From an uncultured Actinomycetes bacterium (GTDB lineage: Bacteria > Actinomycetota > Thermoleophilia > Gaiellales > JAICJC01), in assembly GCA_963706075.1 (NCBI GenBank), contig CAVPLP010000002.1, positions 432,758 to 496,757 of the forward strand: a stretch of 64,000 nucleotides of DNA, written 5' to 3'. The stretch's first letter is position 1, and each line of letters begins with the position of its first letter. The notes under the pieces were generated by a model that did not search any database, was not told the origin of the DNA, and saw only the letters and a list, made by a program, of their open reading frames with translations. The position numbers were made by a program, and so were the translations under genes. This document shows, one piece after another, positions 1,445-48,540 of this stretch.

Positions 1445-1469
1445 CGGGCGAATCTAGACGATTGATGGT

Positions 1470-2129
1470 CTAAACGAGGCCGGGCAGGATCCGCTTGGTG
1501 CGGGCCGCGTAGTCCTCGTACGCCGGGAACTGGGCGCGGAGGTTCGACTCCTCGTAGTGCGTCCGCGCGATCTGGAGTCCCAGGCAGACGAGCCAGGCGC
1601 CGGCCGCGGCGACCGGGTGCCTCGACCCGATCACGATGCCGATCGCCGCCGTGAGCTCGCCGAGGTAGAGCGGATGGCGGACAAGGCGGTAGGGGCCGCG
1701 CACGACCAGGCCGCGGACGTCGGGCAGGATGCCGAAGCACCGCCCGAGGACGGCGACCGAGGCGAGCGAGAAGGCGAGCCCGGCGAAGAGCAGCGAGTCC
1801 GAGACCATGACGCGGATGCCGGCCCCGGCGTCGGCGCCGAAGAGGCCGACCGAGATCATCGTCAGCTGCGAGAGCAGGGCGACGGCCACGCCGACCGGGG
1901 CGCGGTCGCGACGGATCGGTGCCGGCCGGATGTTGATCAGCACCGTGAACATCACCCACAGAGCGCCGGAGAGGACGTGGAACGCCCCGCCCGAGACCGA
2001 CGTCGCCTGCATCGTCGCCTCGATCTGCACCACGACCATGACGGTGAAGAGGAGCGTCGGGATGGCGCGCGAGCCCAGCAGCGTGAGCACGTCCGGGATC
2101 GGGCCGGCGCGGGAGACGTATTCGGTCAC
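1470..2129 (-). CDS. Isoprenylcysteine carboxyl / phospholipid methyltransferase-family membrane protein
   Basis: 219-aa multi-TM ORF with C-terminal VRHPLYLGE...IARTHYEE, typical of the ICMT/PEMT family. Confidence 0.7.
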   Translation of the reverse strand: MTEYVSRAGPIPDVLTLLGSRAIPTLLFTVMVVVQIEATMQATSVSGGAFHVLSGALWVMFTVLINIRPAPIRRDRAPVGVAVALLSQLTMISVGLFGADAGAGIRVMVSDSLLFAGLAFSLASVAVLGRCFGILPDVRGLVVRGPYRLVRHPLYLGELTAAIGIVIGSRHPVAAAGAWLVCLGLQIARTHYEESNLRAQFPAYEDYAARTKRILPGLV

Positions 2130-2156
2130 ACTCAGTTCATCGGCGGGCGTGCCGCC

Positions 2157-2666
2157 CTACATGAGGGGAAGCCCGCCCGCAGGCTCGACGCCCTGCGGGT
2201 CGAGCGCCTCGAGCCAGGCACGCGCCGTCCGCCCCGACAGCACGAGGTCGGGAGCGATGTCGCACAGCGGCCGCAGCACGAACTCACGCTCGTGAGCCCG
2301 CGGGTGCGGGAGCGTGAGGCGGGCGTCGTCACGTGCGACGTCCTCGAACCAGATGAGGTCGAGGTCGAGCGTGCGAGGTCCCCAGCGCACCTCGCGCACG
2401 CGGCCGTGCGCCGCCTCGATGTCGAGCAGGACGCCGAGCAGCGCATCGGGATCGAGCTCGGTCTTGAGCGCCGCGACCGCGTTCAGGAACGGCGGCTGGT
2501 CGGTGACGCCGACCGGTTCGGAGCGGTAGATGGGCGAGGCGGCGACGATCCGGCCGCCCCGGCGGCCGAGCTCGACGACCGCCGTTCGCAGCGTGGAGGC
2601 AGGATCTCCCAGGTTGGCCCCGAATCCGACGTACGCCCGGCTCACCCGCTTGGGTGCATTTTCCAT
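2157..2666 (-). CDS. folK: 2-amino-4-hydroxy-6-hydroxymethyldihydropteridine diphosphokinase
   Basis: YVGFGANLGD...SPIYRSEPVG...DQPPFLNAV...GPRTLDLDLI...LPHPRAHEREFVLRPL. I chose the internal ATG at 2666 (MENAPKRVSRAYV) within ORF 2157..2783. Confidence 0.85.
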   Translation of the reverse strand: MENAPKRVSRAYVGFGANLGDPASTLRTAVVELGRRGGRIVAASPIYRSEPVGVTDQPPFLNAVAALKTELDPDALLGVLLDIEAAHGRVREVRWGPRTLDLDLIWFEDVARDDARLTLPHPRAHEREFVLRPLCDIAPDLVLSGRTARAWLEALDPQGVEPAGGLPLM

Positions 2667-2769
2667 ATATCCCCTTAACGAACCCCTCACATTTGCCGAT
2701 GTCCTGATCAGGGTACGGGTGATTCGCGTTGGCCGTATCCAGCTCCCGGCTCTGACCAAGGATGGTGCC

Positions 2770-3078
2770 ATGTCGACCCTCATGGAACTGACCGTCGTGC
2801 TCGTACTTTGCCCGGCCGCGCTTGCGATCTGGGCTGACGCGCGCTACCCCAACCTGCGCCCTCGCGAGATCCGGCGGACCACCGTCCATCTCGGCATCGG
2901 CGGCGTGCTTGCCTTCCTCGGCATGCGCCCGATCCTGGCCGCGATCGCGGCCGAGCTCTCCGGCCCGACCGGCAAGGCCACGGCGATCCTCGCCGCCTGC
3001 GCGGTCATCACCTACTGCCTGACCGTGTCCGTCTGGATCGTGCGCCTCGCGTCCGAGACGGTCCGCGAAGGCCGCTAG
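2770..3078 (+). CDS. Hypothetical small membrane protein
   Basis: In-frame ATG at 2770 within ORF 2530..3078. MSTLMELTVVLVLCPAALAIW... shows about three hydrophobic spans. Confidence 0.5.
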   Translation: MSTLMELTVVLVLCPAALAIWADARYPNLRPREIRRTTVHLGIGGVLAFLGMRPILAAIAAELSGPTGKATAILAACAVITYCLTVSVWIVRLASETVREGR

Positions 3079-3087
3079 CCCGGCAGA

Positions 3088-3741
3088 TCAGGCCATCACT
3101 TCGCGCAGGACGGCGGCCGCCTCTGCGCGGGTGCGCGCCTTGAGCTTGCGCAGGATCGCCTTCACGTGCCAGCGCACGGTCTCGGGCGAGAGGAAGAGCC
3201 GGTCCGCGATCTCGACGGTGGTCTCGCCCGCCGCGATGTGCTGGAGGATCTCGAGCTGGCGCGGCGTCAGGCGCTCGCGATGCGGCAGCTTCGACGCCAG
3301 GAGCATCCGGCGCTGCGACTCGCGCACGTCGTCGATGAGATGCGCCGCCATCGTCCGCGAGAGCGCGGCCTCGCCCGCGAGGACGCCGTTCAGCGCGACG
3401 GCCAGCCGTTCCGGCGGCTGGTCCTTGGTCAGGTAGCCGGCGGCGCCGGCGCGCAGGGCGGTCAGCATGTCGCCCGGGTCGCGAGACTCGGTGAGGATGA
3501 CCACGCGCGGCGGAGCTCCCTCCATGTCCGCCAGGCGGCGCACGAGGTCGACGCCGCTGCCGTCGGCCAGGCGCAGGTCGGCCACGACCAGGTCGGGCTG
3601 TGCCCGCGCGGCGACGTCCACCGCCTCGCGGACGCTCGAGGCCGCACCGACGACGGTGAGCCCGCCCGCCTCGAGAACGGCGATGAGGCCACGGCGGAAC
3701 AACGGCTGGTCGTCGACGACCAGGATGCGCACCTGCGGCAT
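3088..3741 (-). CDS. NarL/LuxR-family two-component response regulator
   Basis: MPQVRILVVDDQPLFRRGL...DLVVADLRLADGSG receiver domain plus C-terminal LTPRQLEILQHIAAGETTVEIADRLFLSPETVRWHVKAILRKL HTH. GGAAG lies 5 nt upstream of the ATG at 3741. Confidence 0.9.
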   Translation of the reverse strand: MPQVRILVVDDQPLFRRGLIAVLEAGGLTVVGAASSVREAVDVAARAQPDLVVADLRLADGSGVDLVRRLADMEGAPPRVVILTESRDPGDMLTALRAGAAGYLTKDQPPERLAVALNGVLAGEAALSRTMAAHLIDDVRESQRRMLLASKLPHRERLTPRQLEILQHIAAGETTVEIADRLFLSPETVRWHVKAILRKLKARTRAEAAAVLREVMA

Positions 3742-4130
3742 GCTTCCGTTATACGCCGGAATTCGGGTCCGGCGGAAGCCTCCGCGACGACCGCCACCTC
3801 GTCGAGGTCGTGCGGGATCGGGACATCGGGCTTCGCGACTCGCACCCTCGCGTGCACCACTCCGAACCTGGCGACGAGGTCGTCGGCGATCAGGGCGGCG
3901 AGCCGCTCCAGCAGACGATACGGCCCGCCCTGGGCCAGCTCCACGACGCGATCGCACACGGCGGCGTAGTTGACTGCGTCGGCGAGGTCGTCGGTCTCGT
4001 CGGCCCGCGAGGGCGTGCACTCGAGCCAGACGTCGAGGACGAACGTCTGCCCGTCCCGGCGCTCCTCCTCGAGCACGCCGTGGTAGGCGAACACCCGCAG
4101 GCCGCGGATCTCGATGCGGGCGCTCCTCAC
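3462..4130 (-). CDS. folB: Dihydroneopterin aldolase (literal open frame; the homologous part ends ~3745)
   Basis: GTG at 4130 overlaps the folP stop (GTGA). Reads VRSARIEIRGLRVFAYHGVLEEERRDGQTFVLDV...VRVAKPDVPIPHDLDEVAVV. There is no in-frame stop until 3462, which is 280 nt inside the response regulator gene. Confidence 0.8.
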   Translation of the reverse strand: MRSARIEIRGLRVFAYHGVLEEERRDGQTFVLDVWLECTPSRADETDDLADAVNYAAVCDRVVELAQGGPYRLLERLAALIADDLVARFGVVHARVRVAKPDVPIPHDLDEVAVVAEASAGPEFRRITEACRRCASWSSTTSRCSAVASSPFSRRAGSPSSVRPRASARRWTSPRGHSPTWSWPTCAWPTAAASTSCAAWRTWRELRRAWSSSPSLATRATC

Positions 4131-4957
4131 GGCGCCGCCTCGATCGCGCCCGCGACCGCCAGCGCCTCGCGCGTCTCGCGCACGTCGTGCACCCTGACCA
4201 TCCACGCCCCGCGCCGCACCGCCTCGACGTTCGCGGCCGCCGTCGCGACGGCCCTGGTGCGATCGGCGTCGCCGATGATCGAGCCCAGGAACCGCTTGCG
4301 CGACACCCCGACGACCACGGGCGGGCCGACCGCGACGATCGCATCGAGGTGCCGCAGGAGCGAGAGGTTGTGCTCGCCGGTCTTGCCGAACCCGATGCCG
4401 GGATCGATGCAGATCGCCTCGTCCGAGATGCCCGCGGACTTTGCCGCCTCGACACGCTCGGCCAGGAACGCCGCCACCTCCGCCACCACGTCGTCGTAGC
4501 GCGGGTCGTCCTGCATCGTCTTGGGATCCCCCCGCATGTGCATGAGGCACACCGGCACCCCGGCGCCCGCCACCACCTCGGCCATGCGCGGGTCGACCCG
4601 CATCGCCGACACGTCGTTCACAAACGATGCCCCCGCATCGATGGCCGCCTCGGCGACCACGGCCTTGGTCGTATCGATCGAGATCGGCACGTCGGTCGCC
4701 TCGCGCAGGCCGCGGATCACCGCCAGCACGCGGGCCAGCTCGACCTCGGCCGACACCGGGTCCGACCCCGGCCGGGTCGACTCGCCGCCGACGTCGAGCA
4801 CGTCGGCGCCCTCGGCGACGAGCGCGACGCCGCGGGCGATCGCTGTCCCGGGATCGAGGTACTCGCCGCCGTCCGAGAACGAGTCGGGCGTCACGTTGAT
4901 CACGCCCATAACCGCCGGAGGCGGGAACCGGTCAGGCAATCGGGCCACGGGCGGCAT
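4127..4957 (-). CDS. folP: Dihydropteroate synthase
   Basis: VMGVINVTPDSFSDGG...DVGGESTRPG...IDTTKAVVAEAA...VNDVS...IDPGIGFGKT...GVSRKRF. ATG at 4957 within ORF 4127..5308. Confidence 0.9.
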   Translation of the reverse strand: MPPVARLPDRFPPPAVMGVINVTPDSFSDGGEYLDPGTAIARGVALVAEGADVLDVGGESTRPGSDPVSAEVELARVLAVIRGLREATDVPISIDTTKAVVAEAAIDAGASFVNDVSAMRVDPRMAEVVAGAGVPVCLMHMRGDPKTMQDDPRYDDVVAEVAAFLAERVEAAKSAGISDEAICIDPGIGFGKTGEHNLSLLRHLDAIVAVGPPVVVGVSRKRFLGSIIGDADRTRAVATAAANVEAVRRGAWMVRVHDVRETREALAVAGAIEAAP

Positions 4958-4963
4958 CCTAGA

Positions 4964-5659
4964 ATGGCGCCGTCGACCACCCGCCGGAGAGGCGCGCTGC
5001 CGTTTCACACGTCGCACATCGAGGTTGAGGCCGGTCTGCTCCGGCAGGCTCTCGGCCCGAACGCAAGCGTGCTCGAGGCCGGCTGCGGCCGGACGACCCG
5101 CCTGGCCCGCTTTCGCGACCGGATCGACCGGCTGGTCGGCGTCGACCTCGACGAATCGGGCGGGCGGATGAACGAGTCGCTCGACGAGTTCGCCGTCGCC
5201 GACCTGTGCGGCACGCTGCCCTTCCCCGACGGGACGTTCGACCTCGTCTACTCGAACTTCGTCGTCGAGCACCTCGAGCGGCCACCGGCGGCGTTCGCCG
5301 AGTGGCACCGCGTGCTGCGCCCGGGAGGGTCGGTCGTCGTCGTCACGAGCAACCGGTCAAACCCGCTCATGGCGGCGGCGCGGGTGCTGCCACAGGGCCT
5401 GCGCACGGTGATCAAGGGGCGCGGGCCGGGCGCCGCGGCCCGTGACGTCTTCCCGGCCCGCTACCGCGCCAACACGCCCGAGGCGCTCACGAGCCAGCTC
5501 GGCCGGGCGGGCTTCAGTCCGGTCCAGGTCGTCCCCGTCGCGACGCTCCACCGCTACGCGGGCGAGCGGCGGGCGGCCGCCGCGGCCCTCCGCACCTTCG
5601 AGCGCGGCCTGCCGCCGCGCCTGCGCTCGACGATCGTCGCCTGGTACCGCCGGGACTAG
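4964..5659 (+). CDS. Class I SAM-dependent methyltransferase
   Basis: VLEAGCGRT motif I, FDLVYSNFVVEHL, and LRPGGSVVVVTSN. ATG at 4964 within ORF 4187..5659, only 6 nt from the divergent folP start. Confidence 0.8.
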   Translation: MAPSTTRRRGALPFHTSHIEVEAGLLRQALGPNASVLEAGCGRTTRLARFRDRIDRLVGVDLDESGGRMNESLDEFAVADLCGTLPFPDGTFDLVYSNFVVEHLERPPAAFAEWHRVLRPGGSVVVVTSNRSNPLMAAARVLPQGLRTVIKGRGPGAAARDVFPARYRANTPEALTSQLGRAGFSPVQVVPVATLHRYAGERRAAAAALRTFERGLPPRLRSTIVAWYRRD

Positions 5660-7003
5660 CCCCGGTAGGACAGTGAGGTGGCCGTCGGCAGGAGCCGCTC
5701 GTAGCCGTACCCGGTGATCGGGCGGTGGCCGGGCCGCCACAGCTCGGCGGAGTTGTTGTTGTCGAAGCCCATGGCATCGGTGGCGCCCATGTCGGCGAGG
5801 ACGTCGGCGAACTTCGGCATGGTGAGCCCCGTGCCGCCCTTGCCGCCGATCATGATCATCCAGGCCGAGTTGCCGGAGCGGACCAGCGCCGGGCGCCAGC
5901 AGCCCCCGCCGCACTCCCACTGCCACGGATCGATGGAGTCGGGCCGCGACGAGACCGCATGGCCGCCGGTCACGAGCATCGGCTTCCCGCCCGTGATGTC
6001 GGTGACGTTGCTCCACCCGGCGTCGTCGATCGCCGTGTCGACGGCGGGCGAGCCGGACCCGGCGAGCGCGGTGAGGCCGTCAGCGGCGATGTCGGTCACC
6101 GTGTCCGTCCTCGCGAGGAGCAGCACGCCGCCCACGGGGACGGTCACCTGCTCGGCCGGCTGGCAGACGTTCGTCACGCACGTCGAGGGGGTTGCGATCG
6201 GCATCGAGACGGGCTGCCGCTGGGCGGTCGACTCGGTGATGCGGAACGCCACCACGGACTCGGACTTGCTCAGGCCCTTCACGTTCTTGTAGTTGTCCTG
6301 GTGTCCGCGAAGCTGCGTGGCGAGGACGTCCGAGTCGAGCACGACGCCGACGGCGTTCGCCGGGATCGTCACGGTGTCGCCGGCGTGCGTGTACGCCGCG
6401 ACCTGGTCGCTCCGGATCGACGTCGCGAGGGCGGCGGGGCTGGGGTTGAACGCCCCGACCGTCGCCGACGTGCCGCCCGGGAAGTCGAGCTTCATCGGAC
6501 GGAGGATCGGGTGGCCCATGATGAACCGGCCGTTGGGCTTGTACCCGACCGCCAGGCTGCCGGTACCGAAGCGGAAGATCCGCCGGTCCTGGAGGAGTGG
6601 ATCCCGCTCGTCGTGCTCCTGGTGGGGCTCCAGCTCTGGTAGATCGAGTAGTCGCCGTTTATCGCGGCGATCATGCCCGGCGGCCCGCCCGCCGAAGCGA
6701 GATGCGAGACTCTGGTGGTCGGTGATCCACGTGCTCGAGTCGTCGTAGGCGCCGAGCAGCGACGAGTGAAGGCTCACGTGCTGGTTCCCGAACTTCCAGC
6801 TCAGCTTGTAGACCTCCTGGGCGCCGAAGACGCCGCGCACGGTGATGCGCGAGTGCACGAGCGTGACGCCCGGCTTCAGGGTCTTGCGCGAGATGACCCT
6901 CTTGGTGGTGATCGGGGCCCGCCCACGCAGCCGTGCTGCCGGAAAGGACGACGAGGCCCACGAGGCCGATCCCGAGCACACGGGAGAAGAGTTTGGATGA
7001 CAC
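5656..7003 (-). pseudogene. Secreted phosphodiester glycosidase (NAGPA/DUF2233-like) gene with several frame disruptions
   Basis: Signal peptide MSSKLFSRVLGIGLVGLVVLSGSTAAWAG (ORF 6671..7003) joins PITTKRVISRKTLKPGVTLVH...TWITDHQ (ORF 5656..6981). That joins MIAAINGDYSIYQ (ORF 6492..6674), then returns to DPLLQDRRIFRFGTGSLAVGYKPNGRF... ending at 5656. Shifts lie at ~6914-6925, ~6674-6690 and ~6600-6640. Confidence 0.6.
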
Positions 7004-35294: not shown

Positions 35295-36040
35295 GCCGCC
35301 CGCGAATCGGCTGGGCTGTCGCCCTCCTCGCGATCCTGGCCGCCTGGCAGGCCTGGGTGCGCCTGCGCGATGTGCCCGACTACCTGCTGCCCGCCCCGAC
35401 CGACATCCTGAACGCCCTGTGGGACGACCGGAGCAGGCTCGCAACCGACGCCGCGCACACCGCGGGCGAGATGCTCGCCGGCTTCGCCGCGGCGGTCGGG
35501 TTCGGCCTCGTGTCCGCCGCCGCCCTGCACTTCTCGGCGACGCTCCGCCGAGCCGTCTACCCCCTCCTCGTCGCCTCGCAGAGCGTGCCTGTCGTGGCGA
35601 TCGCGCCGGTCCTCGTCATCTACCTCGGCTTCGGGCTCGCGCCCAAGGTCGTGATCGTGGCGCTGGTCTGCTTCTTCCCGGTGACGGTGAACGCGCTCGA
35701 CGGCCTGCGCTCGGTCGACCCCGAATACCTGCGCGTGATGCGCACTCTGCGGGCCTCGCGGGCGGCGACCTTCCGCCGCGTCGAGGTGCCGTGGGCGCTG
35801 CCGTCCGCGTTCTCGGGCGCCCGCGTGGCGGCGTCCTACGCCGCCGTCGCAGCCCTCTTCGCCGAGTACGCGGGAGGCTCGTCGGGCCTCGGCGAGACCA
35901 TGCAGACCGCAACCGCGCAGCTCGACGCTCCTCTGGTCGGCGCGGCGGTCGTCGTGCTCGCGGCGCTGGCGCTCGCGCTCTTCGCGGCCGTCTCGATCGC
36001 CGAGCGAGTGGCGATCCCCTGGGCGAGGCGGGGAGCGTGA
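35291..36040 (+). CDS. ABC transporter permease, ThiX-like
   Basis: MSRPRIGWAVALLAILAAW... polytopic with an EAA-like loop (RTLRASRAATFRRVEVPWALP). GTGA overlap with the next gene. Confidence 0.85.
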   Translation: MSRPRIGWAVALLAILAAWQAWVRLRDVPDYLLPAPTDILNALWDDRSRLATDAAHTAGEMLAGFAAAVGFGLVSAAALHFSATLRRAVYPLLVASQSVPVVAIAPVLVIYLGFGLAPKVVIVALVCFFPVTVNALDGLRSVDPEYLRVMRTLRASRAATFRRVEVPWALPSAFSGARVAASYAAVAALFAEYAGGSSGLGETMQTATAQLDAPLVGAAVVVLAALALALFAAVSIAERVAIPWARRGA

Positions 36041-36999
36041 GGCTCCGCGCCGTGGCGGTCGCGACCCTGCTCCTCGCCGCTGCCTGCGGCGGGTCGTCGC
36101 CACCGAACGCGTCGCCACGCGAGGACGTGACGCTCGTGCTCGACTGGGTCCCGAACCCCGACCACGTGGGGATCTACGCGGCGATGGACAAGGGCTTCTT
36201 CGCGCGAAACGGCCTCACGGTCACGCCGCGGCCGCCGTCAGGCGTGTCGGACGCGCTGACGCTCGTGGGGGCCGGCCGGGCCGACGTGGGCATCTCGTAC
36301 GAGCCGGAGCTCTTCTTCGCGCAGGAGCACCACGCGCCCGTCGCGGCGGTCGCCACCGTCGTGCCGACTGCGCTCGCCTCGATCATCGCCGCCGGATCGA
36401 GCGGCATCCGCACGCCGGCCGACCTGCGCGGGAAGACGATCGGCGTGGACGGCACCCAGAGCACCGCCGCCTTCGTCGACAAGGTGCTCGCGAGCGCCGG
36501 CCTCGGCGCCGGCGACGTCCATCTCGTCGACGTCAAGTTCAACCAGGTCCCGGCACTCCTCGGCCACAAGGTCGATGCGGTCGCCGGCGTGTTCCAGAAC
36601 ATCGAAGGAGTGCTCTTCGCCATGCGCGGCCTGCACCCGGTCGTCTTCCCGTACGACCGCTACGGCGTGCCGCCATACGACGAGCTGGTGGTCGTCGCGA
36701 ACGCCGACCGGCTGCGCGACGACACGGCCTACCGCGCCACGGTGCGGCGGTTCGTCGCCGGCCTCGCCGCCGGCACGGACTGGGCCAAGGCCCACCCCGA
36801 TGCCGCGGTCGCGGTGATGCGCGGACATTCCGCCGACGACTACCGGAACGTCCTCGAGCAGAGCGTCCCCGCCACCCTCCGCCTGCTCGGCACCGGCCCG
36901 CCGCCCGAGGTCGCGTGGGCCCGGTTCGGCGCGTGGATGTTCAGGTCGGGTCTGCTGGACGCCAGGCCGGACGCGGCGGCTCTCATAGCCCAGCCCTAG
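36037..36999 (+). CDS. ABC substrate-binding lipoprotein, NMT1/THI5-like (ThiY-like)
   Basis: GTG at 36037 within ORF 35419..36999. Lipobox LLLAAACGG, then TLVLDWVPNPDHVGIYAAMDKGFFARNGL. Confidence 0.85.
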   Translation: MRLRAVAVATLLLAAACGGSSPPNASPREDVTLVLDWVPNPDHVGIYAAMDKGFFARNGLTVTPRPPSGVSDALTLVGAGRADVGISYEPELFFAQEHHAPVAAVATVVPTALASIIAAGSSGIRTPADLRGKTIGVDGTQSTAAFVDKVLASAGLGAGDVHLVDVKFNQVPALLGHKVDAVAGVFQNIEGVLFAMRGLHPVVFPYDRYGVPPYDELVVVANADRLRDDTAYRATVRRFVAGLAAGTDWAKAHPDAAVAVMRGHSADDYRNVLEQSVPATLRLLGTGPPPEVAWARFGAWMFRSGLLDARPDAAALIAQP

Positions 37000-37010
37000 A
37001 CTTCGGGCAG

Positions 37011-37550
37011 ATGGATTCGCTCAAGGGCCAGCTCCTGATCGCCGCGCCGATGCTCGTCGATCCGAACTTCCACCGCACCGTGGTGCTGATCATGGAGCAC
37101 ACCGACGAGGGCGCGCTCGGCGTGGTGCTGAACCGCCCGACCGAGCTCCCGGTCGGCGAGGCCGTGCCCGACCTCGCGGAGCTCGCCGACGGCGATCCGG
37201 TGTTCGCGGGCGGCCCGGTGCAGCCTCAGGCCGTGATCGCCCTCGCCGAGCACACCGGCCCGGTCGGCGAGGAGGCCGTGTGCGGCCCGATCGCCCCCAT
37301 ACAGGTGTCGGACGACATCGACGACATCGGAGGCCACGTCGCCCGCGTCCGCGTGTTCGCCGGCTACGCGGGCTGGGGCGAGGGACAGCTCGACGACGAG
37401 CTCGCCGAGGAGGCCTGGTTCACCGAGCCGGCACTCCCCGGAGACATCTTCGCGGGCGACACCGACGGCCTCTGGCGACGCGTCCTCGAGCGCAAGGGCG
37501 GCGAGTTCACGCTCGTGGCGCGGATGCCGCCCGACCCGTCGCAGAACTAG
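37011..37550 (+). CDS. YqgE/AlgH-family protein (UPF0301)
   Basis: ATG at 37011 within ORF 36915..37550: LKGQLLIAAPMLVDPNFHRTVVLIMEHTDEGALGVVLNRP...GYAGWGEGQLDDE. Confidence 0.85.
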   Translation: MDSLKGQLLIAAPMLVDPNFHRTVVLIMEHTDEGALGVVLNRPTELPVGEAVPDLAELADGDPVFAGGPVQPQAVIALAEHTGPVGEEAVCGPIAPIQVSDDIDDIGGHVARVRVFAGYAGWGEGQLDDELAEEAWFTEPALPGDIFAGDTDGLWRRVLERKGGEFTLVARMPPDPSQN

Positions 37551-37580
37551 CGGCCGCAACCGTTCGAAAGGGGTCGGCGG

Positions 37581-38396
37581 TTGGCGGAGCCCGGTGAGCG
37601 GCGGCTACGATCCGCCCGTTCCGTGGCAACGATCGCCGACATTGACGAGCTCCATCTGACGTCTCCGGCCATGGACGGCCCGCAGGTGCGGCGGGCGCAG
37701 CGGGCGCTCCTGCACAACCCGTACGGGACGTTCGACCCCGGCCCGCTCGACGGCGTGTACGGCGAGAGGACAGCCGCAGCGGTGCGCCGGGCGAAGTACT
37801 GGATGGGCTTCCCCGAGCAGAAGATCGACCAGGTGTGCGGGTCGGACCTGCTCACGCTGCTCGCCGAGGAGTCGCCGCTCTCGTCGTCGCTCAAGTCGAT
37901 GCGGACGCGCCGGCTGAGGCGGGCCGAGGATGCCCAGCTGTGGGGCGCTGCCTACGATGCCGCGGTCTCGTGCGTCGGCGACCGCGAGGAGCCGCCGGGC
38001 AGCCATCGGTGCGACTTCACCGAGTGGTACGGGGTTCCCGGGCCGTGGTGCGCGATGTTCGTGTCGTGGTGCTTCGTCCAGGCCGGCTCGACGGCGTTCG
38101 AGCCCGGGCGTCACTACTCGTACGTCCCACACCTGATGAACGACGCCCAGCGCGGCGCCAACTCGCTCTCGATCACGCGCACGCCGCTCAACGCCGATCT
38201 GGCCGTCTTCGACCTCGACGGCGACGGCGTGCCCGACCACATCGGGATGTTCGACCGCTGGCTCGACGCGGGCGAGACCCGCTACCAGACCGTCGAGGGC
38301 AACGTCTCGCTCTCGGGCGAGCCGAACGGCGGCCGGGTGCTCCAGCGCGAGCGCCACCGGGCCCAGACGTTCGCGTTCGTGCACGTGCGCGGCTGA
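37581..38396 (+). CDS. Peptidoglycan-binding domain + CHAP-domain cell-wall hydrolase
   Basis: 271-aa ORF with a PG_binding_1-like part (GPQVRRAQRALL...DGVYGERTAAAVRRAKYWMGF). The CHAP-like part has Cys in PGPWCAMFVSWCF and His in VPDHIGMF. Start (TTG 37581 or GTG 37623) is uncertain. Confidence 0.75.
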   Translation: MAEPGERRLRSARSVATIADIDELHLTSPAMDGPQVRRAQRALLHNPYGTFDPGPLDGVYGERTAAAVRRAKYWMGFPEQKIDQVCGSDLLTLLAEESPLSSSLKSMRTRRLRRAEDAQLWGAAYDAAVSCVGDREEPPGSHRCDFTEWYGVPGPWCAMFVSWCFVQAGSTAFEPGRHYSYVPHLMNDAQRGANSLSITRTPLNADLAVFDLDGDGVPDHIGMFDRWLDAGETRYQTVEGNVSLSGEPNGGRVLQRERHRAQTFAFVHVRG

Positions 38397-38406
38397 CCGC
38401 CGGCGA

Positions 38407-39087
38407 TCACGAGACGTGGTGGAAGTACCGGCGGGCCGCGTGCCCGACCCTGTGCGTCGACCACATGTTGTAGCCCGCGGCGATCCCGATCCCGACGATC
38501 GGCACCTCACGGCCGAGGAGCACGTACGCACGCCGCCTGGCGATCTTGGCAACCACGACCGCGGCCAGCCGGCGCGAGATGGGCCTGGCCAGCCTGGCGC
38601 CGGCCTCGTCGGCCAGCTCGCCGTCGCGGTGGATCCGCCCCATGACGCGGACAACGCCGTTCTTGCGCAGGTCGACGACACCCGCCTCGACGCCCATGGC
38701 CATGAGGACGTCCAGCTTTCGGGCCTCCACGTCCGTGATCGGCCTGCCGTGGAGGTGGGCGACCAGCAGCACGAGCTCCGTCTGGGCGACGGTGAGGAGC
38801 GAGGCATCACCCACCGCCGCGCCGACCTCGGCGACCGTGCCGAACCCGGGTATCACCGCCGGCAGGGCGCTCACGGCACCCGTGCCGGCGACCCGCTTGC
38901 TGCTCTGTGCGATCGCGTGGCGCGAGATCTCCGAGGGCGACCATCCCGGATGCGCGGCCTGAAGACGCTCCGCGGCGCGAACGACGGCCGGGCCGCGGCG
39001 TTCGACCACGGCCGTGATCGCGCGCTCGGTGGTGCCGGCCAGGCGGTCGGAGAGCGCGTCGAGTGCCAGGTTGGATGCGAAACCCAT
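38407..39087 (-). CDS. Hypothetical protein, EcsC-like
   Basis: 226-aa ORF: ...GAVSALPAVIPGFGTVAEVGAAVGDASLLTVAQTELVLLVAHLHG. TACAAT box (39095-39100) lies 7 nt upstream of the ATG. Family assignment is tentative. Confidence 0.5.
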   Translation of the reverse strand: MGFASNLALDALSDRLAGTTERAITAVVERRGPAVVRAAERLQAAHPGWSPSEISRHAIAQSSKRVAGTGAVSALPAVIPGFGTVAEVGAAVGDASLLTVAQTELVLLVAHLHGRPITDVEARKLDVLMAMGVEAGVVDLRKNGVVRVMGRIHRDGELADEAGARLARPISRRLAAVVVAKIARRRAYVLLGREVPIVGIGIAAGYNMWSTHRVGHAARRYFHHVS

Positions 39088-39139
39088 CGCACCGATTGTA
39101 TGGGCGGGCCGCAGCTACCCTGACGCTGCGAATGCCACG

Positions 39140-40229
39140 ATGACGGATCACGCGCTGACACCGCGCGAGCGCCGCCTGCGCCGCGGGCTCGTTGCGCTCG
39201 CGATGGTGTGCGCTCTCCTGGCACTCCTCGTCGTCGCCGTTCTGGTCTACTGGCGGCTCTACCTCCTCGGACCGTCGGGCGACCCGTTCACCCGCGGGCC
39301 GTTCGTGATCAGGCTCAGCACAACCGAGGCGACGCTGGCGTGGTCGGTCGAGGGCGGGCGCCGCGTCGAGCTCACCGCGACCGGCCCCGGGCGGAACCGT
39401 GACCGGTGCCGGCGGCCGGCTGACCGGGCTCCAGCCGGGGACGCGGTATGTCTGGACGGCGTCCGTGGGGGGCATCGGTCGCGCGTCCGGCTCGTTCCGG
39501 ACCGCGCCGCTCGACCTGCGGGAGCCGGTCCGCTTCGCCGTGATCGGCGACTACGGCTCCGGGAACGACCACGAGTGGGCGGTCGGCCGCACACTCGCCG
39601 CGGAACGGCCCGACTTCGTGACGACGGCCGGCGACAACAGCTACCTCGTCGGGGCGCCCCAGGTGCTCGACCGCAACATCTTCGACCCGCTGCACGACGT
39701 CATGCTGGGCGCCCCTCTGTGGGCGACCGAGGGGGAGCACGACCTGATCTACTCGGGCGGAGCCGCGGTGACGTCGGCGCTCCACCTCCCCGGGCCGCGC
39801 GGGCGCTACGCCGTCCGGTACGGGCCGGTGCAGCTCGTCCTGCTCGGCCTCGAGGCGGGCGCCTCCGAGATCGCCTTCGCCCGCAGGGAGCTCGCCGTGC
39901 CGGGGCCGCTCGTGCGCTTCGTCGTCGTCCACAGACCGGTGCAGCCCGGGAATCCCATCCTGCCGCTTCTGCGCCGGTCGGGCGTCGCAGCCATCCTCGC
40001 AGGGCACCTGCACCGCTACGAGCGGCGAACGGTCGGCGGCATCCCCGAGTTCACGGTCGGGACGAGCGGCGAGGGGCCGGGAGCTGCGGAGTTCACGAAG
40101 GCCACGCCGGGCGCCGCCGTATCGCTCCTCGACTACGGGTCGCTACTGGTCGAGGTGTCGAGCGGCGGGATCGCCTACACGTTCGTCGACGAGCGCGGGC
40201 GCGTTCTGGACAGCTGGTCGGAGCGATGA
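39140..40229 (+). CDS. Membrane-anchored metallophosphoesterase (purple-acid-phosphatase-like) (frame change at ~39383-39397)
   Basis: MTDHALTPRERRLRRGLVALAMVCALLALLVVAV...VELTATGPG (ORF 39014..40567 frame) continues as TVTGAGGRLTGLQPGTRYVW...FAVIGDYGSG...AGDNSY...GEHD...AGHLHRYER (ORF 39399..40229). Confidence 0.75.
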
Positions 40230-40567
40230 GATGGCCCCGTGTGGCGCTCGGGCTCGTCGGAGCGATCGCGACGGCGGCCGCCCTGCTCGTGCCTGAGCCG
40301 CAGGTGTTCGCGATCACGGGCATCGCCGGCATCGTCGCCGTCGTGCTCGCCGCCGGCTGCCTCGCGGCCGACTCGATCCCCTACAGACCGGCCCACGCGG
40401 CGGCCGCGGCGCTCTCGATCGTCGATGCCGTGGTGCTGGCCGTCGGCGGGCGGGCCGTCGGGATCCCCGTGCTCGTGCCCGCCGTCGTCCTCCTGCTGCT
40501 CCAACTGGCACCGGCGGCCAACGCCAGGTGGCTCAGGCGCGGGCCTCGACCTGGTTTCGGATCGTGA
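40226..40567 (+). CDS. Hypothetical membrane protein
   Basis: ATG at 40226 (ATGA overlap with the previous stop): MRWPRVALGLVGAIATAAALLV... with 3-4 hydrophobic spans. Confidence 0.5.
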   Translation: MRWPRVALGLVGAIATAAALLVPEPQVFAITGIAGIVAVVLAAGCLAADSIPYRPAHAAAAALSIVDAVVLAVGGRAVGIPVLVPAVVLLLLQLAPAANARWLRRGPRPGFGS

Positions 40568-40586
40568 CAGCAGACCAGCGTCGCCC

Positions 40587-40910
40587 TTACGCGTTCCCCG
40601 GATGCGCCGGGCAGGTGATCTTCACCTTGCCGGACGCGGACACCACCAGGCTGAAGCCCGTCGAAGACGCGACGCCGTTCCCGGGCTTCGGCACGAAGCC
40701 GCCGCCCGCCGGCCGGCCGTTTCGCGTCACGCAGACGATCTTGTCGCCGACGTGCACCCGGCCGCCGAGGTGGAACGTGTAGTGCCCCGGCTTGAGGCGG
40801 ATCGTCTTCTTCGCATGGTTGGGGTGGTTGACCACGGAACCGTCGGAGGCGGAGACCCAGCACGCCATTCCGACGACCGCGACGATCGCGAGTGTTCGGA
40901 TGTGTCTCAT
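40587..40910 (-). CDS. Hypothetical secreted protein
   Basis: ATG at 40910 within ORF 40587..41558: MRHIRTLAIVAVVGMACWVSASDGS signal-like N-terminus. 107 aa. Confidence 0.5.
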   Translation of the reverse strand: MRHIRTLAIVAVVGMACWVSASDGSVVNHPNHAKKTIRLKPGHYTFHLGGRVHVGDKIVCVTRNGRPAGGGFVPKPGNGVASSTGFSLVVSASGKVKITCPAHPGNA

Positions 40911-40915
40911 GCCAC

Positions 40916-41413
40916 TCAGACGGTGGCGGCGCGCGTTCTGTTCCCGCGGGGATCGCCGACCCGGAACCAGATCGTCACCGCGCCGGCCGGCCCGGCCAGC
41001 TTTCGAAGGTGGACGCGCCACGTCCCCTCCGGCATCGGGCACCCTTCCTCGCCCACGGTGCAGACGACGCGTCGTCCATGTCGACCGCACGAGCTGCTCG
41101 GCCCGGTGCGCGACGTGCGGATGAGGAGCGGCACCGTGGTGTTGGGCAGCTGCGTGGTGCCCTCGACCCTCGTCCCCGCCGGGGCGCTGAGCCGGTAGAG
41201 CAGGATCATGCCGGCCGGCTCGTGCAGCGCGAAGCCGACCGACTGGCGGCCCTCGCCGAACCGCACCGTCGCCGAGTGCCTCGAGAGCCCGACCGGCGGG
41301 TGGCCGGCCACGGCGTGCATCGCCGGCGCGACGGCGTGCTCGGCGATCGACGCCGAGCCGCATCCTCCGGCCATGGCCGCGGCAACGAGCAGCGCGCCGA
41401 GCCGCCAAGCCAT
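40916..41413 (-). CDS. Hypothetical lipoprotein
   Basis: ATG at 41413 within ORF 40916..41959: MAWRLGALLVAAAMAGGCGSAS lipobox. 165 aa. Confidence 0.55.
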   Translation of the reverse strand: MAWRLGALLVAAAMAGGCGSASIAEHAVAPAMHAVAGHPPVGLSRHSATVRFGEGRQSVGFALHEPAGMILLYRLSAPAGTRVEGTTQLPNTTVPLLIRTSRTGPSSSCGRHGRRVVCTVGEEGCPMPEGTWRVHLRKLAGPAGAVTIWFRVGDPRGNRTRAATV

Positions 41414-41596
41414 GCGGGGGACGATGGTCACTGCGGTGTGTACGCGCGACGCCGCAACGTGCGTCCCAGGCGGAGTCACGCCGCCACCGTAACGCACTGT
41501 GAGCGAAAACCCGACCTGATTCCGCGAGCGCGATTCGCCGGGACCACCCACGGACCACGCTTGTGCGGGCCGACCGAACCAGGAGGGAGAGGCTGT

Positions 41597-42040
41597 ATGA
41601 GCGTGAAGAGCGACTTCGACGGGGCTGAATGGGATCTGGTGGCCGAGGGGCCCGTCACCGCCGGGATGATCGTGCTCACCGCCGACAGCGGCGGGACGTT
41701 TCGCGAGACGCTGGCGCTGGCGCGCTCCTACACGGACGCTCGCAAAGAGCACGGGCAGAGCGAGCTGCTCGACGAGATCGTCTCGGCCAAGCCCGAGTTC
41801 GACCGGCACCGCTACCACTCGACCCGCGAGCTGCACGACGCTGGCCTCGAGCGGATCGCCGAAGCAGCCGCGGTCGTCGGCCGGAAGGGCACACCGGAAG
41901 AGCTCAACGACTACCGCAAGTTCGTCGTGACCCTCGCGTCGACAGTGGCGGCCGCCCACAAGGAGGAGGGACAGCAGGTGAGCACCGCCGAGCAGGCGGC
42001 GCTGAACGAGATTCGCGACCGGCTGCAGGCGTCCGCCTGA
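41597..42040 (+). CDS. Hypothetical protein
   Basis: ATG at 41597 with AGGAGGGAG upstream: MSVKSDFDGAEWDLVAEGPVTAGMIVL...NDYRKFVVTLASTVAAAHKEEG. Balanced composition. Confidence 0.6.
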   Translation: MSVKSDFDGAEWDLVAEGPVTAGMIVLTADSGGTFRETLALARSYTDARKEHGQSELLDEIVSAKPEFDRHRYHSTRELHDAGLERIAEAAAVVGRKGTPEELNDYRKFVVTLASTVAAAHKEEGQQVSTAEQAALNEIRDRLQASA

Positions 42041-42111
42041 CGAGCTCCCGGCCGTCAGGGAAGCTGCGATCGAACGGCTCTCCAGACCACCGGCAGACCA
42101 CGCGGCCGTGA

Positions 42112-42142
42112 AGAGCTATCGGGGCGCCGAGATTTGAACTCG
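42112..42142. repeat. att-like direct repeat (distal copy): AGAGCTATCGGGGCGCCGAGATTTGAACTCG
   Basis: Identical to 43104-43134. Four further bases (GCCG) match 3 nt upstream in both copies. No 5' half of a tRNA is present here. Confidence 0.85.
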
Positions 42143-42237
42143 TCCGGGTGCCCTCGACGCGCGCCGACGCGGGACAGCCGGATCCGCGTCGCCTGGGCTG
42201 GAGGTTTGCTCTGGGTGGGGGCGTAGGATGACCGGCG

Positions 42238-42882
42238 ATGACTGGGTCGAGGAAGCCCCGCAAGGCGTCCTGGCGCGAGCTGCCGCCTGCCGAGATGGCC
42301 GCTCACCTACTCGCCACTCCCACGATCAGCGACGGCGCCTGGACGTCGGAGCCTCGCCTGGCCGGCGAGGCGCGCTCGGCCTTCGTGCGCCGCGTCCTGC
42401 TCGGCGAGACGCCGGAGTCCGAGCCGGAGACGCCCGAGGCCGAGGCCGCACAGCCGGCCGGCCTGAAGCGCGGGTACTACCTTCTGAATACTGACGGGGG
42501 CAACTCCGGGGACCGCTTTGGCCGCGCGGCGATTGGTGCGCTCTTGCGCGCGCGGGCGCGCCGTCTGGTCACAGTGGATCAGATCTCGAAGGAGATCGGT
42601 CCTGCCACCCACAACGTGGCGGAGTACCGAGCGTTGATCGAGGGATTGAAGGTTGCGCGCGGTCACGGCATCCAGCGAATCCGCGTCTACATGGACTCTG
42701 AGCTCGTCGTGGACCAAGTAAATGGTGTCGCCGCGGTGAAGCAAGAACATCTAAAAGAACTGCACAAGGATGCGACCACTCTCGTCGCTCTGTTCAAGAA
42801 CATCCGCATCTCCTGGGTGCCTCGGGAAATGAACGCCGAGGCAGACCAACTCGTGAGGGATGCACTCGGCCGCCGCGACTAG
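42238..42882 (+). CDS. RNase H type-1 domain protein with ~85-aa N-terminal extension
   Basis: 214-aa ORF. C-terminal LLNTDGG...THNVAEYRALIEGLKVA...VYMDSELVVDQVNG...REMNAEADQLV carries the D-E-D-D catalytic pattern. Many A/T-ending codons appear from ~42470 on. Confidence 0.75.
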   Translation: MTGSRKPRKASWRELPPAEMAAHLLATPTISDGAWTSEPRLAGEARSAFVRRVLLGETPESEPETPEAEAAQPAGLKRGYYLLNTDGGNSGDRFGRAAIGALLRARARRLVTVDQISKEIGPATHNVAEYRALIEGLKVARGHGIQRIRVYMDSELVVDQVNGVAAVKQEHLKELHKDATTLVALFKNIRISWVPREMNAEADQLVRDALGRRD

Positions 42883-42918
42883 GCGGCGGGCCGCTCTCGT
42901 CGATGCGGCGACCCAACT

Positions 42919-43020
42919 CGCGTCCAGGCCGAGCTCGGCCACTCGGCTCCGGCGTTCACGCTCCGCGTCTACGGCCATCTCTGGCCAGACGAGATCGAGA
43001 TCGGCCGCGCGGCGCTCGAC
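42919..43020 (+). pseudogene. Tyrosine recombinase (phage-type integrase) C-terminal fragment
   Basis: My translation of the frame opening at the RNase H TAG: RVQAELGHSAPAFTLRVYGHLWPDEIEIGRAALD. This is the box II LGHxxxxxTxxxYxHL region with the catalytic Tyr. No upstream integrase sequence is present. Confidence 0.65.
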
Positions 43021-43103
43021 GCGCGTTCTCGGCGAGCGCGTTGGACGAACTATGGACGACGCCGCCGCCCGAATGGCGGCGGCGTCGCATGGTTAGGCCG
43101 ATT

Positions 43104-43134
43104 AGAGCTATCGGGGCGCCGAGATTTGAACTCG
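43104..43134. repeat. att-like direct repeat (tRNA-proximal copy)
   Basis: Covers the T-arm and acceptor 3' strand of tRNA-Pro plus 7 nt beyond its 3' end. Identical to 42112-42142. Confidence 0.85.
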
Positions 43135-43184
43135 GGACCTCACCGACCCGAACGGTGCGCGCTACCAGGCTGCGCCACGCCCCG
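43111..43184 (-). tRNA. tRNA-Pro (anticodon CGG)
   Basis: Hand-folded cloverleaf, 74 nt: CGGGGCG-TG-GCGC-AGCCTGGTA-GCGC-G-CACCG-TTCGGGT-CGGTG-AGGTC-CCGAG-TTCAAAT-CTCGG-CGCCCCG-A. C1-G72 is typical of bacterial tRNA-Pro. No encoded CCA. Confidence 0.9.
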
Positions 43185-43194
43185 GAAGCCGGGA

Positions 43195-43455
43195 TTATCG
43201 CAGGCGCGAGTCGCGCCGCGCGCAATACGCGTCGAATGCGACCAGCCTGCGGATCCAGGCCGCCATGGCCTCGACCTCGACGTCGTAGAGCAGGCGATCG
43301 GTCTCGAAGATCTCGATCGTGGCGTCGATGCGGCGCTGGATGCGGGCGCGCAACGTGTCGCTGCCCGTGCGCTCGAACGCCTCGCGGCGCACGCGACCGC
43401 GGCCTGGGCGAACGTGCCCGGCCAGGCGGTCGTCAAGCGAGACCCTCTCCGCCAT
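43195..43455 (-). CDS. Hypothetical small protein (possible ribbon-helix-helix N-terminus)
   Basis: ATG at 43455 within ORF 43195..44265: MAERVSLDDRLAGHV...IDATIEIFETDRLLYDVEVEAMAAWIRRL. It is antisense to a long stop-free frame, so the call is weak. Confidence 0.35.
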   Translation of the reverse strand: MAERVSLDDRLAGHVRPGRGRVRREAFERTGSDTLRARIQRRIDATIEIFETDRLLYDVEVEAMAAWIRRLVAFDAYCARRDSRLR

Positions 43456-43536
43456 ACCGCCAGATTCGCGGACGGAGGCCCCCGGCGCAAGTGGGTGGGG
43501 TGGCAGGACCACCCGTTTGGAGGGTACGGTTGGACC

Positions 43537-44295
43537 GTGGCCCGCCGGGACGAGATCGTCGCATTCCTCGACGACCACCTCGACGCCGGGGGCTATCCAG
43601 ACGCGCTCCCCGTCGGCCTCCAGGTGGTCGGCGCCCCCGAGGTGCGGAGGGTCGCGACGGGTGTCAGCGCGTCGCTCGAGCTCTTCGAGCGCGCCGCCGA
43701 CGACGGCGCCCAGATGCTGATCGTCCACCACGGCCTCTTCTGGAGCTCGGAGCCGCGCCGGATCGGCGAGCGCGAGCGGGCCCGCCTGCGCTGCCTCTTC
43801 GACCACGACCTGTCGCTCGTCGCGTACCACCTCGCCCTCGACGCCCACCCGGAGGTCGGGAACAACGCCCTCATCTGCCGCGCCCTGGGGCTCGTCGATC
43901 CGGTCGGCTTCGGTGTGCACGGCGACCGCACGATCGGGTTCCTCGCCACCGCGGACCCGCCGCTCCCGCTCGCCGGCCTCCTCGACCGCGTGCGGGCCGA
44001 GATCAACCCCGCGCCGCTCGTCTTCGACGCAGGGCCCGCGTCGATCCGGCGCGTCGCCGTCATCTCGGGCGCCGCCGCGCAGGACGTCCTCCCGGCCGCC
44101 GACGCGGGCGCAGACTGCTTCCTGACGGGCGAGCCGCGCGAGCCCGTGATGGCGCAGGCCCGCGAGGCCGGGATCCACTTCGTGGCTGCCGGCCACTACG
44201 CCACGGAGGTCTTCGGAGTGCGCGCGCTCGGGGAGCTTCTGGCCCAGCGGTTCGGGGTCGAGCACTCGTTCATCGACGTCCCAAACCCGATCTGA
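43537..44295 (+). CDS. Nif3-like dinuclear metal centre protein (YbgI/GTP cyclohydrolase 1 type 2 homolog)
   Basis: GTG at 43537 with TACGGT 6 nt upstream: ...LIVHHGLFW...LVAYHLALDAHPEVGNN...AAGHYATE. Confidence 0.85.
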   Translation: MARRDEIVAFLDDHLDAGGYPDALPVGLQVVGAPEVRRVATGVSASLELFERAADDGAQMLIVHHGLFWSSEPRRIGERERARLRCLFDHDLSLVAYHLALDAHPEVGNNALICRALGLVDPVGFGVHGDRTIGFLATADPPLPLAGLLDRVRAEINPAPLVFDAGPASIRRVAVISGAAAQDVLPAADAGADCFLTGEPREPVMAQAREAGIHFVAAGHYATEVFGVRALGELLAQRFGVEHSFIDVPNPI

Positions 44296-44325
44296 GGGGG
44301 CAACGGCAGATCCCCCGGCGGATTG

Positions 44326-44354
44326 TTGACGCAGTCCGGATGCCTGGGTATGGT
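44326..44354 (+). promoter_or_regulatory. Sigma-70-type promoter: TTGACG - 17 nt - TATGGT
   Basis: -35 at 44326-44331 and -10 at 44349-44354. An ATG follows 6 nt after the -10 box (44361), the same layout seen at several other gene starts here. Confidence 0.5.
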
Positions 44355-44360
44355 GTGAGC

Positions 44361-44387
44361 ATGGACAGCCGATCGGAGCGGGCCTAG
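44361..44387 (+). other. Leaderless 8-codon mini-ORF (MDSRSERA) inside the leader/small-RNA unit
   Basis: ATG GAC AGC CGA TCG GAG CGG GCC TAG, read directly. Its position relative to the -10 box matches the leaderless pattern. Translation is unproven. Confidence 0.25.
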
Positions 44388-44425
44388 CTTGTCCGCCCTC
44401 CGCAAAACCTAGTTCGACCTCTCAG

Positions 44426-44457
44426 CCCATCGAGCGAAGCCGCTCGGTGGGTTTTCT
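44426..44457 (+). terminator. Intrinsic terminator
   Basis: CCCATCGAGCG-AAGC-CGCTCGGTGGG forms an 11-bp stem with one G-U, followed by TTTTCTCGTT. Confidence 0.7.
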
Positions 44458-44482
44458 CGTTCAGCGACCGAAGGGAGCACGA

Positions 44483-44644
44483 ATGGCCAACCATCTGACG
44501 CCGGATGAGCTGTCGAAGGAATACGGCATGAAGCGTGAGGAAGTCATCCGGCTCTGCCACGAGCAGTCCGTCCCGATCTACCACGGAAAGATCGACAAGA
44601 GCCTGTTCCAGGCCGTGCAAGAGGAGTTGAGCCCGTCCAGGTGA
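44483..44644 (+). CDS. Small HTH-like protein (53 aa)
   Basis: ATG at 44483 with GAAGGGAG upstream: MANHLTPDELSKEYGMKREEVIRLCHEQSVPIYHGKIDKSLFQAVQEEL. Resembles excisionase/MerR-type short HTH proteins. Locally lower GC. Confidence 0.5.
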   Translation: MANHLTPDELSKEYGMKREEVIRLCHEQSVPIYHGKIDKSLFQAVQEELSPSR

Positions 44645-44675
44645 CCCGGACGCGGGCGGCGGCCGTAGCCTCTCG

Positions 44676-48540
<3,865 letters not shown>

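Follow-up and report, generated by a model that had tools for sequence, protein, structure and literature searches.

Among the integrative and conjugative elements of actinomycetes (AICEs) and temperate phages, the attachment (att) identity segments overlap the 3′ ends of tRNA genes, and systems of the pSAM2 type use a Pro-tRNA; AICE remnants or islands at Pro-tRNA (for example, the SCO6806 island), and an island with 43-bp repeats at a Pro-tRNA, have also been described (PMC2440964). A cis-mobilizable element (CIME) is defined as having no integration or transfer genes while still being bounded by att repeats (PMC5704250). Here we analyze a comparable locus, positions 42112-43134 of a 64-kb stretch of DNA from an uncultured Actinomycetes bacterium (the whole stretch is called the window below), where an earlier note had placed the relic of an integrative element beside a tRNA-Pro(CGG) gene. 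We find that the locus is very probably the decayed remnant of a small integrative element inserted in the 3′ end of that gene. The remnant is an ordinary, well-understood kind of genomic scar, CIME-like in its makeup.

The repeat pair and the integrase remnant

The 31-mer AGAGCTATCGGGGCGCCGAGATTTGAACTCG occurs in exactly two copies in the window, on the same strand, as the earlier note had described (for coordinates of all features, see Table 1). None of 100 dinucleotide-preserving shuffles contains a match, even with three mismatches tolerated. Over a wider span the similarity extends to 36 of 39 positions (42104-42142 vs. 43096-43134), and no further degenerate copy of the core is found in the window at up to nine mismatches. 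The only tRNA that ARAGORN calls in the window is tRNA-Pro(CGG), which folds as a cloverleaf and scores 59.4 bits (E = 8.7e-12) against Rfam RF00005; the Rfam scan returned nothing besides this tRNA. The proximal repeat consists of the last 24 nt of the tRNA (the T-arm minus its first base, the 3′ acceptor strand, and the discriminator) plus 7 nt downstream, and the distal copy has no 5′ tRNA half. Both points agree with the earlier note. The locus thus shows a direct repeat pair with one member reaching into the 3′ end of a tRNA gene that is itself intact. If the tRNA 3′ end had been duplicated by chance or for structural reasons, with no part played by mobile DNA, only the repeat itself would speak for it: zero matches are expected by chance, an integrase remnant adjoins, and homologous sites both empty and fully occupied exist. 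The comparative data refute this explanation, and we give it practically no weight.

The tyrosine recombinase gene beside the att site is present as a pseudogene stub only. The fragment downstream of and co-directional with the RNase H open reading frame (ORF) reads VQAELGHSAPAFTLRVYGHLWPDE. Its identification as an integrase piece in the earlier note holds; its length there, 34 aa, does not, since the remnant comprises ~58 codons with a +1 frameshift near 43025. The original stop codon, TAG at 43094-43096, lies 8 nt before the repeat, and the codon of the catalytic Tyr is kept (TAC, 42970-42972). By tblastn, the stub is 82% identical over 38 aa (E = 2.4e-14) to residues 306-343 of an intact 366-aa PF00589 integrase (P0144). 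It also matches the PF00589 fragments at two other loci, L078 (80% over 35 aa) and L074 (75%), with E ~1e-14. Against phage genomes, tblastn matched 150 records, the best of them actinophage (best E = 4e-3); among the 20 records listed, all 19 that are annotated carry an integrase annotation under the match. The expectation that the peptide would align to tyrosine recombinases is thus borne out by P0144, by other PF00589 proteins, and by actinophage tyrosine integrases. Pfam gave no match to the stub, which is too short to score, and tblastn against plasmids gave nothing informative. Integron-integrase scores of the stub family are weak and far under the cut-off. The family is known here only from metagenome-assembled genomes (MAGs) of Thermoleophilia type, and the window has no other homologue of it. 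A GC hairpin at the end of the integrase remnant is probably a terminator or an arm structure.

States of the locus in related genomes

The loci compared came from several searches. A genome scan with the RNase H alignment gave 68 loci, of which only L065 is syntenic with the window; a metagenome scan with the 31-mer gave L072 and L073; and when the L065 stub served as query, all ORFs recovered were short (67-136 aa), some of them matching PF00589, and their contigs gave L075, L076/L077, and L078. The intact family members came from a final protein search. The relatives are MAGs of Thermoleophilia (Solirubrobacterales and Gaiellales), not classical actinomycetes.

A full-length counterpart of the element, one of the things the earlier note had proposed to look for in related genomes, is found in three Gaiellales loci (L079-L081). 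Abutting tRNA-Pro(CGG), they carry genes for a 366-aa tyrosine integrase, an HTH_17 excisionase, and a 620-aa Toprim/AAA protein, together with an 87-aa ORF; a small ORF and the NIF3 and S13-peptidase genes follow, the same synteny as in the window. Window 42919-45932 aligns with L079 8328-11361 at 77%, and the stub therefore corresponds to the final 177 nt of an integrase gene that is still alive there. At L078, a near-complete but disrupted integrase adjoins tRNA-Pro(CGG). Related integrases sit at tRNA-Leu(TAA) in L082 and L083, the former bounded by 26-nt repeats 8.6 kb apart. We also observe an IS256-family (Transposase_mut) gene within the intact tRNA-Pro element, full length in L079 (3425-4696) and truncated in L080 (3217-3549).

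Other relatives hold remnants in different stages of erosion. The closest, L075, differs from the window by 1.2% in the flank and has two cores 1428 nt apart. Its order is left flank, x, y, core, z, RNase H 5′ part plus 3′ tail, ~860 nt, a ~80-aa stub, core, and tRNA, where x (15 nt) and y (18 nt) lie outside the distal core and z is the element-side arm next to it; the middle of the RNase H gene is lost. L065, from a Thermoleophilia MAG, is 82%-85% identical to window 36001-40518 and 42920-47973. Its stub is longer (~85 aa) and still contains the HxLRH box; RNase H is present there as three degraded remnants, and there is no distal core. In L076/L077, at 13% flank divergence, the distal core has decayed (25 of 31 positions) and there is no RNase H; the L076 stub has its Tyr codon changed to Cys. 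The ~85-aa stubs of L065 and L076/L077 begin at about the same point.

L072 and L073 are empty sites, a state that the earlier note had also suggested seeking. Their right flanks are 97% identical to the window, and they read left flank (to 42111), x, y, a single core, and tRNA-Pro, without window 42112-43085. The distal copy in L075 (5766-5814) is 100% identical over 49 nt to window 43086-43134, and the empty sites have the same x-y-core arrangement. It follows that the att identity originally measured at least 49 bp (y plus core), made up of 24 nt of tRNA and 25 nt downstream, with its outer part overlapping the last integrase codons. The claim that both att copies remain perfect accordingly stands for the 31-nt cores and fails for the full identity: relative to L075, a 33-nt deletion in the window removed x and y from the distal site, that is, 18 bp of identity and 15 bp of flank. 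A deletion at a GGCCG microhomology was considered as the cause of this clipping and rejected, as the junction sequence does not fit. A second difference from L075 is a deletion of ~940 nt, which joined integrase codon ~306 to the 3′ tail of RNase H; a CG microhomology lies at 42919-42920.

In a neighbor-joining tree of 848 nt of the right flank, the window groups with L075 (1.2%), then with L072/L073 (2.6%-3%), with L065 and L076/L077 at 13%, so that the empty sites are nested inside occupied lineages. The occupied state is therefore the ancestral one, and the empty sites arose secondarily, by precise loss through the repeats. A never-occupied ancestral state of L072 was rejected, since the outgroups carry the element and have the stub breakpoint in common. 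Together, the empty sites, the intact counterpart, and the stub alignment support the attL/attR signature of integration into a tRNA 3′ end that the earlier note had read from the repeats.

The history that would account for these states is as follows. To judge from the intact family, the integrase gene would have reached to within 8 nt of today's 31-nt core, sharing sequence with the attP identity as it first was; attP × attB recombination would then have restored the tRNA, with the att identity duplicated at the opposite end of the element. The comparison shows that insertion is older than the split of lineages now ~13% apart in the flank, after which decay differed by lineage. In the window lineage, it included the RNase H/integrase fusion deletion, the frameshift in the stub, and the 33-nt deletion that clipped the outer part of the distal att. 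In the two close relatives with empty sites, the whole remnant was lost precisely via recombination between the repeats, either by an integrase or by general recombination. The unit in the window is now non-autonomous, and its sole intact gene, a type-1 RNase H, is best read as retained cargo.

Four points weigh against this reconstruction. No distal repeat was found for the intact element in L079, whose contig ends 7.4 kb away; nor is there one within the examined DNA of L074, L078, L069, L003, or L019. The intact relatives carry no RNase H. Beyond the distal core, the DNA (40568-42111) itself varies between genomes, so the history of the locus is multi-layered. Finally, the distal core is identical at 31 of 31 positions despite its inferred age, an outcome to which, with the stub as a neutral yardstick, we would informally assign a probability of ~0.1.

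The RNase H gene and its block

The RNase H gene encodes a protein with a ~60-aa N-terminal domain without a Pfam match, a linker of the TPESEPE type, and a type-1 RNase H (RVT_3) domain at aa 84-209. The last scores 86.1 bits against PF13456 (cut-off 21.6; E = 2.4e-24) over profile positions 1-123 of 123. By motif inspection, we assign a DEDD motif: among the putative catalytic carboxylates, D86, E129, and D153 do not vary in 20 homologues, and conservation of D203 is at least 90%. The closest solved structures are 3hst, 3u3g, 4e19, and 2ehg (the Rv2228c RNase H domain and LC11/archaeal RNases HI); BLASTP against Escherichia coli RNase HI gave no alignment. The homologues come from Solirubrobacterales, Gaiellaceae, and Conexibacter-type MAGs, with 72%-87% identity among the best 120 listed, and one (P0001) is identical to the window protein, although a look-up by exact protein sequence gave no entry. 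The catalytic domain has a ratio of nonsynonymous to synonymous substitution rates (dN/dS) of 0.18-0.3, and GC content falls to 0.60-0.63 over the catalytic half versus ~0.72 locally.

Several further features of the coding sequence were observed. Over the first 60 codons (42238-42417), dS against L069, L070, and L001 is 0.02-0.06, compared with 0.30-0.37 in the catalytic domain, and GC is 0.75 versus 0.60-0.63; recent exchange of the 5′ part, codon bias, and constraint at the nucleotide level are candidate causes of the low dS. The linker (42405-42455) is coded by a slippery short DNA repeat whose copy number differs among homologues, and several copies are frameshifted or truncated right at it (the linker loci are P0109, P0065, L011, L004, and L012). 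In P0002 and P0059 the N-terminal domain is duplicated. A motif of ~45 aa, WRxLPPAEMAAHLLATPTIxD..W..E.R..GE.R..F..R.L, has no Pfam match; it sits at the N terminus of the window protein. In a classical PF00075 RNase H, another RVT_3 protein, and an HNH-like protein, its place is the C terminus. It may be an unrecognized accessory domain of Thermoleophilia nucleases.

In every context, homology starts ~30-60 nt upstream of the ATG and ends 0-38 nt after the stop codon. The block lies beside tRNA-Thr in L069 and within an integrase/excisionase-bearing run of small genes in L070/L071. The conserved 60-nt upstream region with its TAGGAT hexamer suggests a self-contained unit with its own promoter and a leaderless mRNA; scans for consensus sigma-70 promoters and terminators gave nothing. 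Because the block limits recur, because dN/dS is 0.18-0.3, and because intact elements of the integrase family lack the gene, the RNase H is best read as independently shuffled, moron-type cargo under purifying selection. The earlier note was right that an RNase H-like gene lies in the element, and what changes is its standing, that of an independent cargo block and not a core gene. In the ancestor that the window shares with L065, it already stood to the left of the integrase, and the window has kept it intact while the rest decayed. No RNase H relative is found among IMG/VR viral contigs, giving no sign of phage carriage, and PADLOC returns no defense-system match. Two other roles were tried and rejected. 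A conserved host gene beside the tRNA does not fit, since the neighbors differ in nearly every genome. The idea that the antisense copy of the tRNA 3′ end, upstream of an RVT_3 gene, is the primer-binding site of a retroelement fails because there is no reverse transcriptase and because the tRNA part is in sense orientation at other loci.

The discreteness of this module in many unrelated contexts bears on a two-layer history, in which an old integrase relic stood by the tRNA and the RNase H cassette later entered into or next to the old att site by tandem accretion, making the distal core younger than the stub. The perfect distal core, the intact family members without RNase H, and the state of L076/L077 (stub and decayed core, no RNase H) would all suit such a sequence of events. 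However, the cores number just two, with no additional att separating RNase H from the stub; the junction between RNase H and stub is an illegitimate deletion relative to L075 and not an att site; and to the left of its stub L065, 13% diverged, already shows remnants of RNase H. We consider two layers very unlikely.

RNase H genes recur near tRNA sequences elsewhere. At a distance of up to 450 bp, the RNase H domain has a tRNA or a piece of one (T-arm-like motif) at 20 of 63 loci (those of L001-L071 plus the window), and an intact tRNA lies within 500 bp at eight of 59 loci, versus 3.5 expected (P = 0.02). Short-form blocks of ~570 nt are 96%-98.6% identical between species-representative MAGs, at different tRNAs (Ser-TGA, Ser-GGA, Met, Asp, and Pro-GGG) and in surroundings that share little or nothing else; this points to recent horizontal movement of a gene-sized block. 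L026 (4789-13400) holds an integron-like array of integrase-less units of ~0.8-2.1 kb with five to seven copies of a ~150-nt repeat. Each repeat combines a conserved ~110-nt arm with the tRNA-Met 3′ half, from anticodon loop to 3′ end, and the T-stems differ by compensatory changes. A further array of integrase-less units, in L041 (6284-15400), has tRNA-Pro(GGG) and five partial copies of it of ~50 nt. A ~1160-aa protein occurs near RNase H loci in L019 (4402-6186), L036 (1200-4685), and L047 (3610-7176); by eye its sequence has E1-like, JAB-like, and patatin-like parts and would be defense-like.

Such units raise the question of whether the ~1-kb unit in the window still moves. It could be a non-autonomous mini-element (a CIME or cassette) moved in trans by a related integrase elsewhere in the genome or on an incoming element, with presence and absence among close relatives reflecting site-specific excision or insertion. 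The loss in L072/L073 is exact at the repeats, and both element-side arms are kept (z and the stub/hairpin side). Partial tRNA copies bracket RNase H units of 0.78-0.84 kb in L025 (7804-8698), L026 (6448-7273), and L049 (7857-8683), and the short blocks at different tRNAs and the att-flanked arrays of L026 and L041 are of the same tenor. Yet precise loss between 31-49-bp repeats can also come from RecA or replication slippage, the distal att of the window lacks 18 bp of its identity segment, and no related integrase lies within the 64 kb. Moreover, the versions in the window, L075, L065, and L076 differ by unrelated deletions, a pattern of decay and not of a conserved transposing unit. Continued mobility is therefore hard to credit for this copy.

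A broader proposal rests on the RNase H units between partial tRNA copies, the near-identical blocks, and the att-repeat arrays. In Solirubrobacterales and Gaiellales, small integrase-less units with tRNA-derived att repeats would be trans-mobilized cassettes in integron-like arrays at tRNA genes; an RNase H with an undescribed ~45-aa accessory domain would be a favored, actively exchanged cargo, and the 1-kb unit of the window would be one such cassette. We regard this as speculative and on balance unlikely. The arrays in relatives show neither attC sites nor an IntI with attI, their repeats being tRNA 3′ halves plus the ~110-nt arm. The insertion and decay of an integrative element remains the reading that we favor for the window.

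Table 1. Features of the tRNA-Pro(CGG) locus and related loci (window coordinates unless a locus is named)
Feature	Position	Strand	Remarks
Distal att core	42112-42142	-	Exact repeat; copy of last 24 nt of tRNA-Pro + 7 nt; outer side truncated relative to original identity of at least 49 bp
Element-side arm z, by distal core	42143-42177		Common to window and L075 only, first 4 nt also in L076; alignment and BLAST extents
Upstream region of RNase H block	42178-42237	+	Kept in ~9/10 unrelated contexts; -10-like TAGGAT at 42224-42229, 8 nt before ATG
RNase H-like gene, intact, 214 aa	42238-42882	+	Pfam RVT_3; 942 homologues; PDB 3hst, 1e-19
3′ tail of RNase H block	42883-42919	+	Ends at deletion junction with stub (CG microhomology 42919-42920); homology to L069 (to 42920) and L075
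Tyrosine-integrase pseudogene stub	42920-43096	+	Equals aa ~306-366 of intact relative; tblastn and alignment with orthologous stubs
13-bp GC hairpin ending integrase remnant	43057-43087		24 nt from tRNA 3′ end; -26.3 kcal/mol, z = -7.3
y, outer 18 nt of original att identity	43086-43103		Overlaps last integrase codons and stop; also in empty sites L072/L073
Proximal att core	43104-43134	-	Overlaps tRNA 3′ end; exact repeat and ARAGORN
tRNA-Pro(CGG), intact, integration target	43111-43184	-	ARAGORN; Rfam RF00005; cloverleaf fold
~45-aa motif	window 42238-42420; L067 7464-8153; L015 7926-8729; L064 7542-8156; L066 2486-2773
Short-form RNase H blocks	L020 7924-8494; L026 6514-7084; L024 7924-8503; L049 7924-8494

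The variable flank and comparison with known systems

The whole flank of tRNA-Pro is a mosaic, multi-layer variable region. At the point corresponding to window 42063/42064, L075 has a 4.3-kb insert (1403-5702) with genes for an HtrA-like protease, a hydrolase, and a BTAD protein, 23 nt after the stop of a 147-aa gene, where the window has nothing. Left of 40588, L072 has an ArsR/HTH_20-like gene and the window instead has metallophosphoesterase and transmembrane genes. On the other side, a 65-aa ORF (44447-44644) lies in a second GC dip (0.61), and L076, L077, and L079 have a conserved counterpart of 53 aa, placed between the NIF3 and S13-peptidase genes; it looks like a small DNA-binding protein and has no Pfam, NCBIfam, or PADLOC match.

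As a case of textbook tRNA-directed integration, the relic mainly marks tRNA-Pro(CGG) as a hot spot of integration in an uncultured lineage of Thermoleophilia. It is of value because a single locus offers a clean series of alleles, from the intact element through relics of 1.4 kb and 1.0 kb and a decayed relic to a precise empty site, and shows an element eroding while a useful cargo gene stays. A modest side lead is the mobile RNase H block with its accessory domain, recurrent near tRNA and att sites and nearly identical across species.

The locus resembles AICEs such as pSAM2 of Streptomyces in having a tyrosine integrase gene beside a tRNA gene, an att overlap that keeps the tRNA intact, and direct repeats, which in AICEs measure ~43-58 bp; decayed remnants are common there too. 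The comparison with pSAM2 in the earlier note thus carries over as an analogy of mechanism only, as no AICE replication or transfer genes were seen. No AICE replication module (RepSA, RepAM, or Prim-pol) is present in 42112-43134, and L079-L083 have a Toprim/AAA_25 protein of unassigned family. FtsK/SpoIIIE-type Tra, Kor, and Nudix genes are absent from the relic and from the Pfam lists of L079-L083, the L079 element being cut by its contig end. Because no replication, Tra, Kor, or Nudix genes were seen in the relic or the gene lists of its intact relatives, membership in the AICEs is not supported.

P4-like satellites and genomic islands are small islands with an integrase, an excisionase, and a primase-helicase. 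The intact relatives L079-L083 recall them in their Toprim/AAA_25 protein, HTH_17 excisionase, and integrase abutting a tRNA; no capsid-piracy or phage genes were identified in these loci. A CIME, as a decayed integrative and conjugative or integrative and mobilizable element that keeps attL and attR, is like the relic in that only an integrase stub is left and the 31-nt cores are identical, and the tandem arrays in related genomes recall CIME-type accretion. The relic differs in that one att, the distal copy lacking 18 bp, has already been clipped. As for its remaining gene, the protein shares with type-1 RNases H (RVT_3, the N-domain of Rv2228c, LC11, and archaeal enzymes) a full-length RVT_3 match and the DEDD-type carboxylates. 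It is unlike them in its extra ~60-aa N-terminal domain and acidic repeat linker, and it travels as a mobile, moron-like block rather than as a fixed housekeeping gene.

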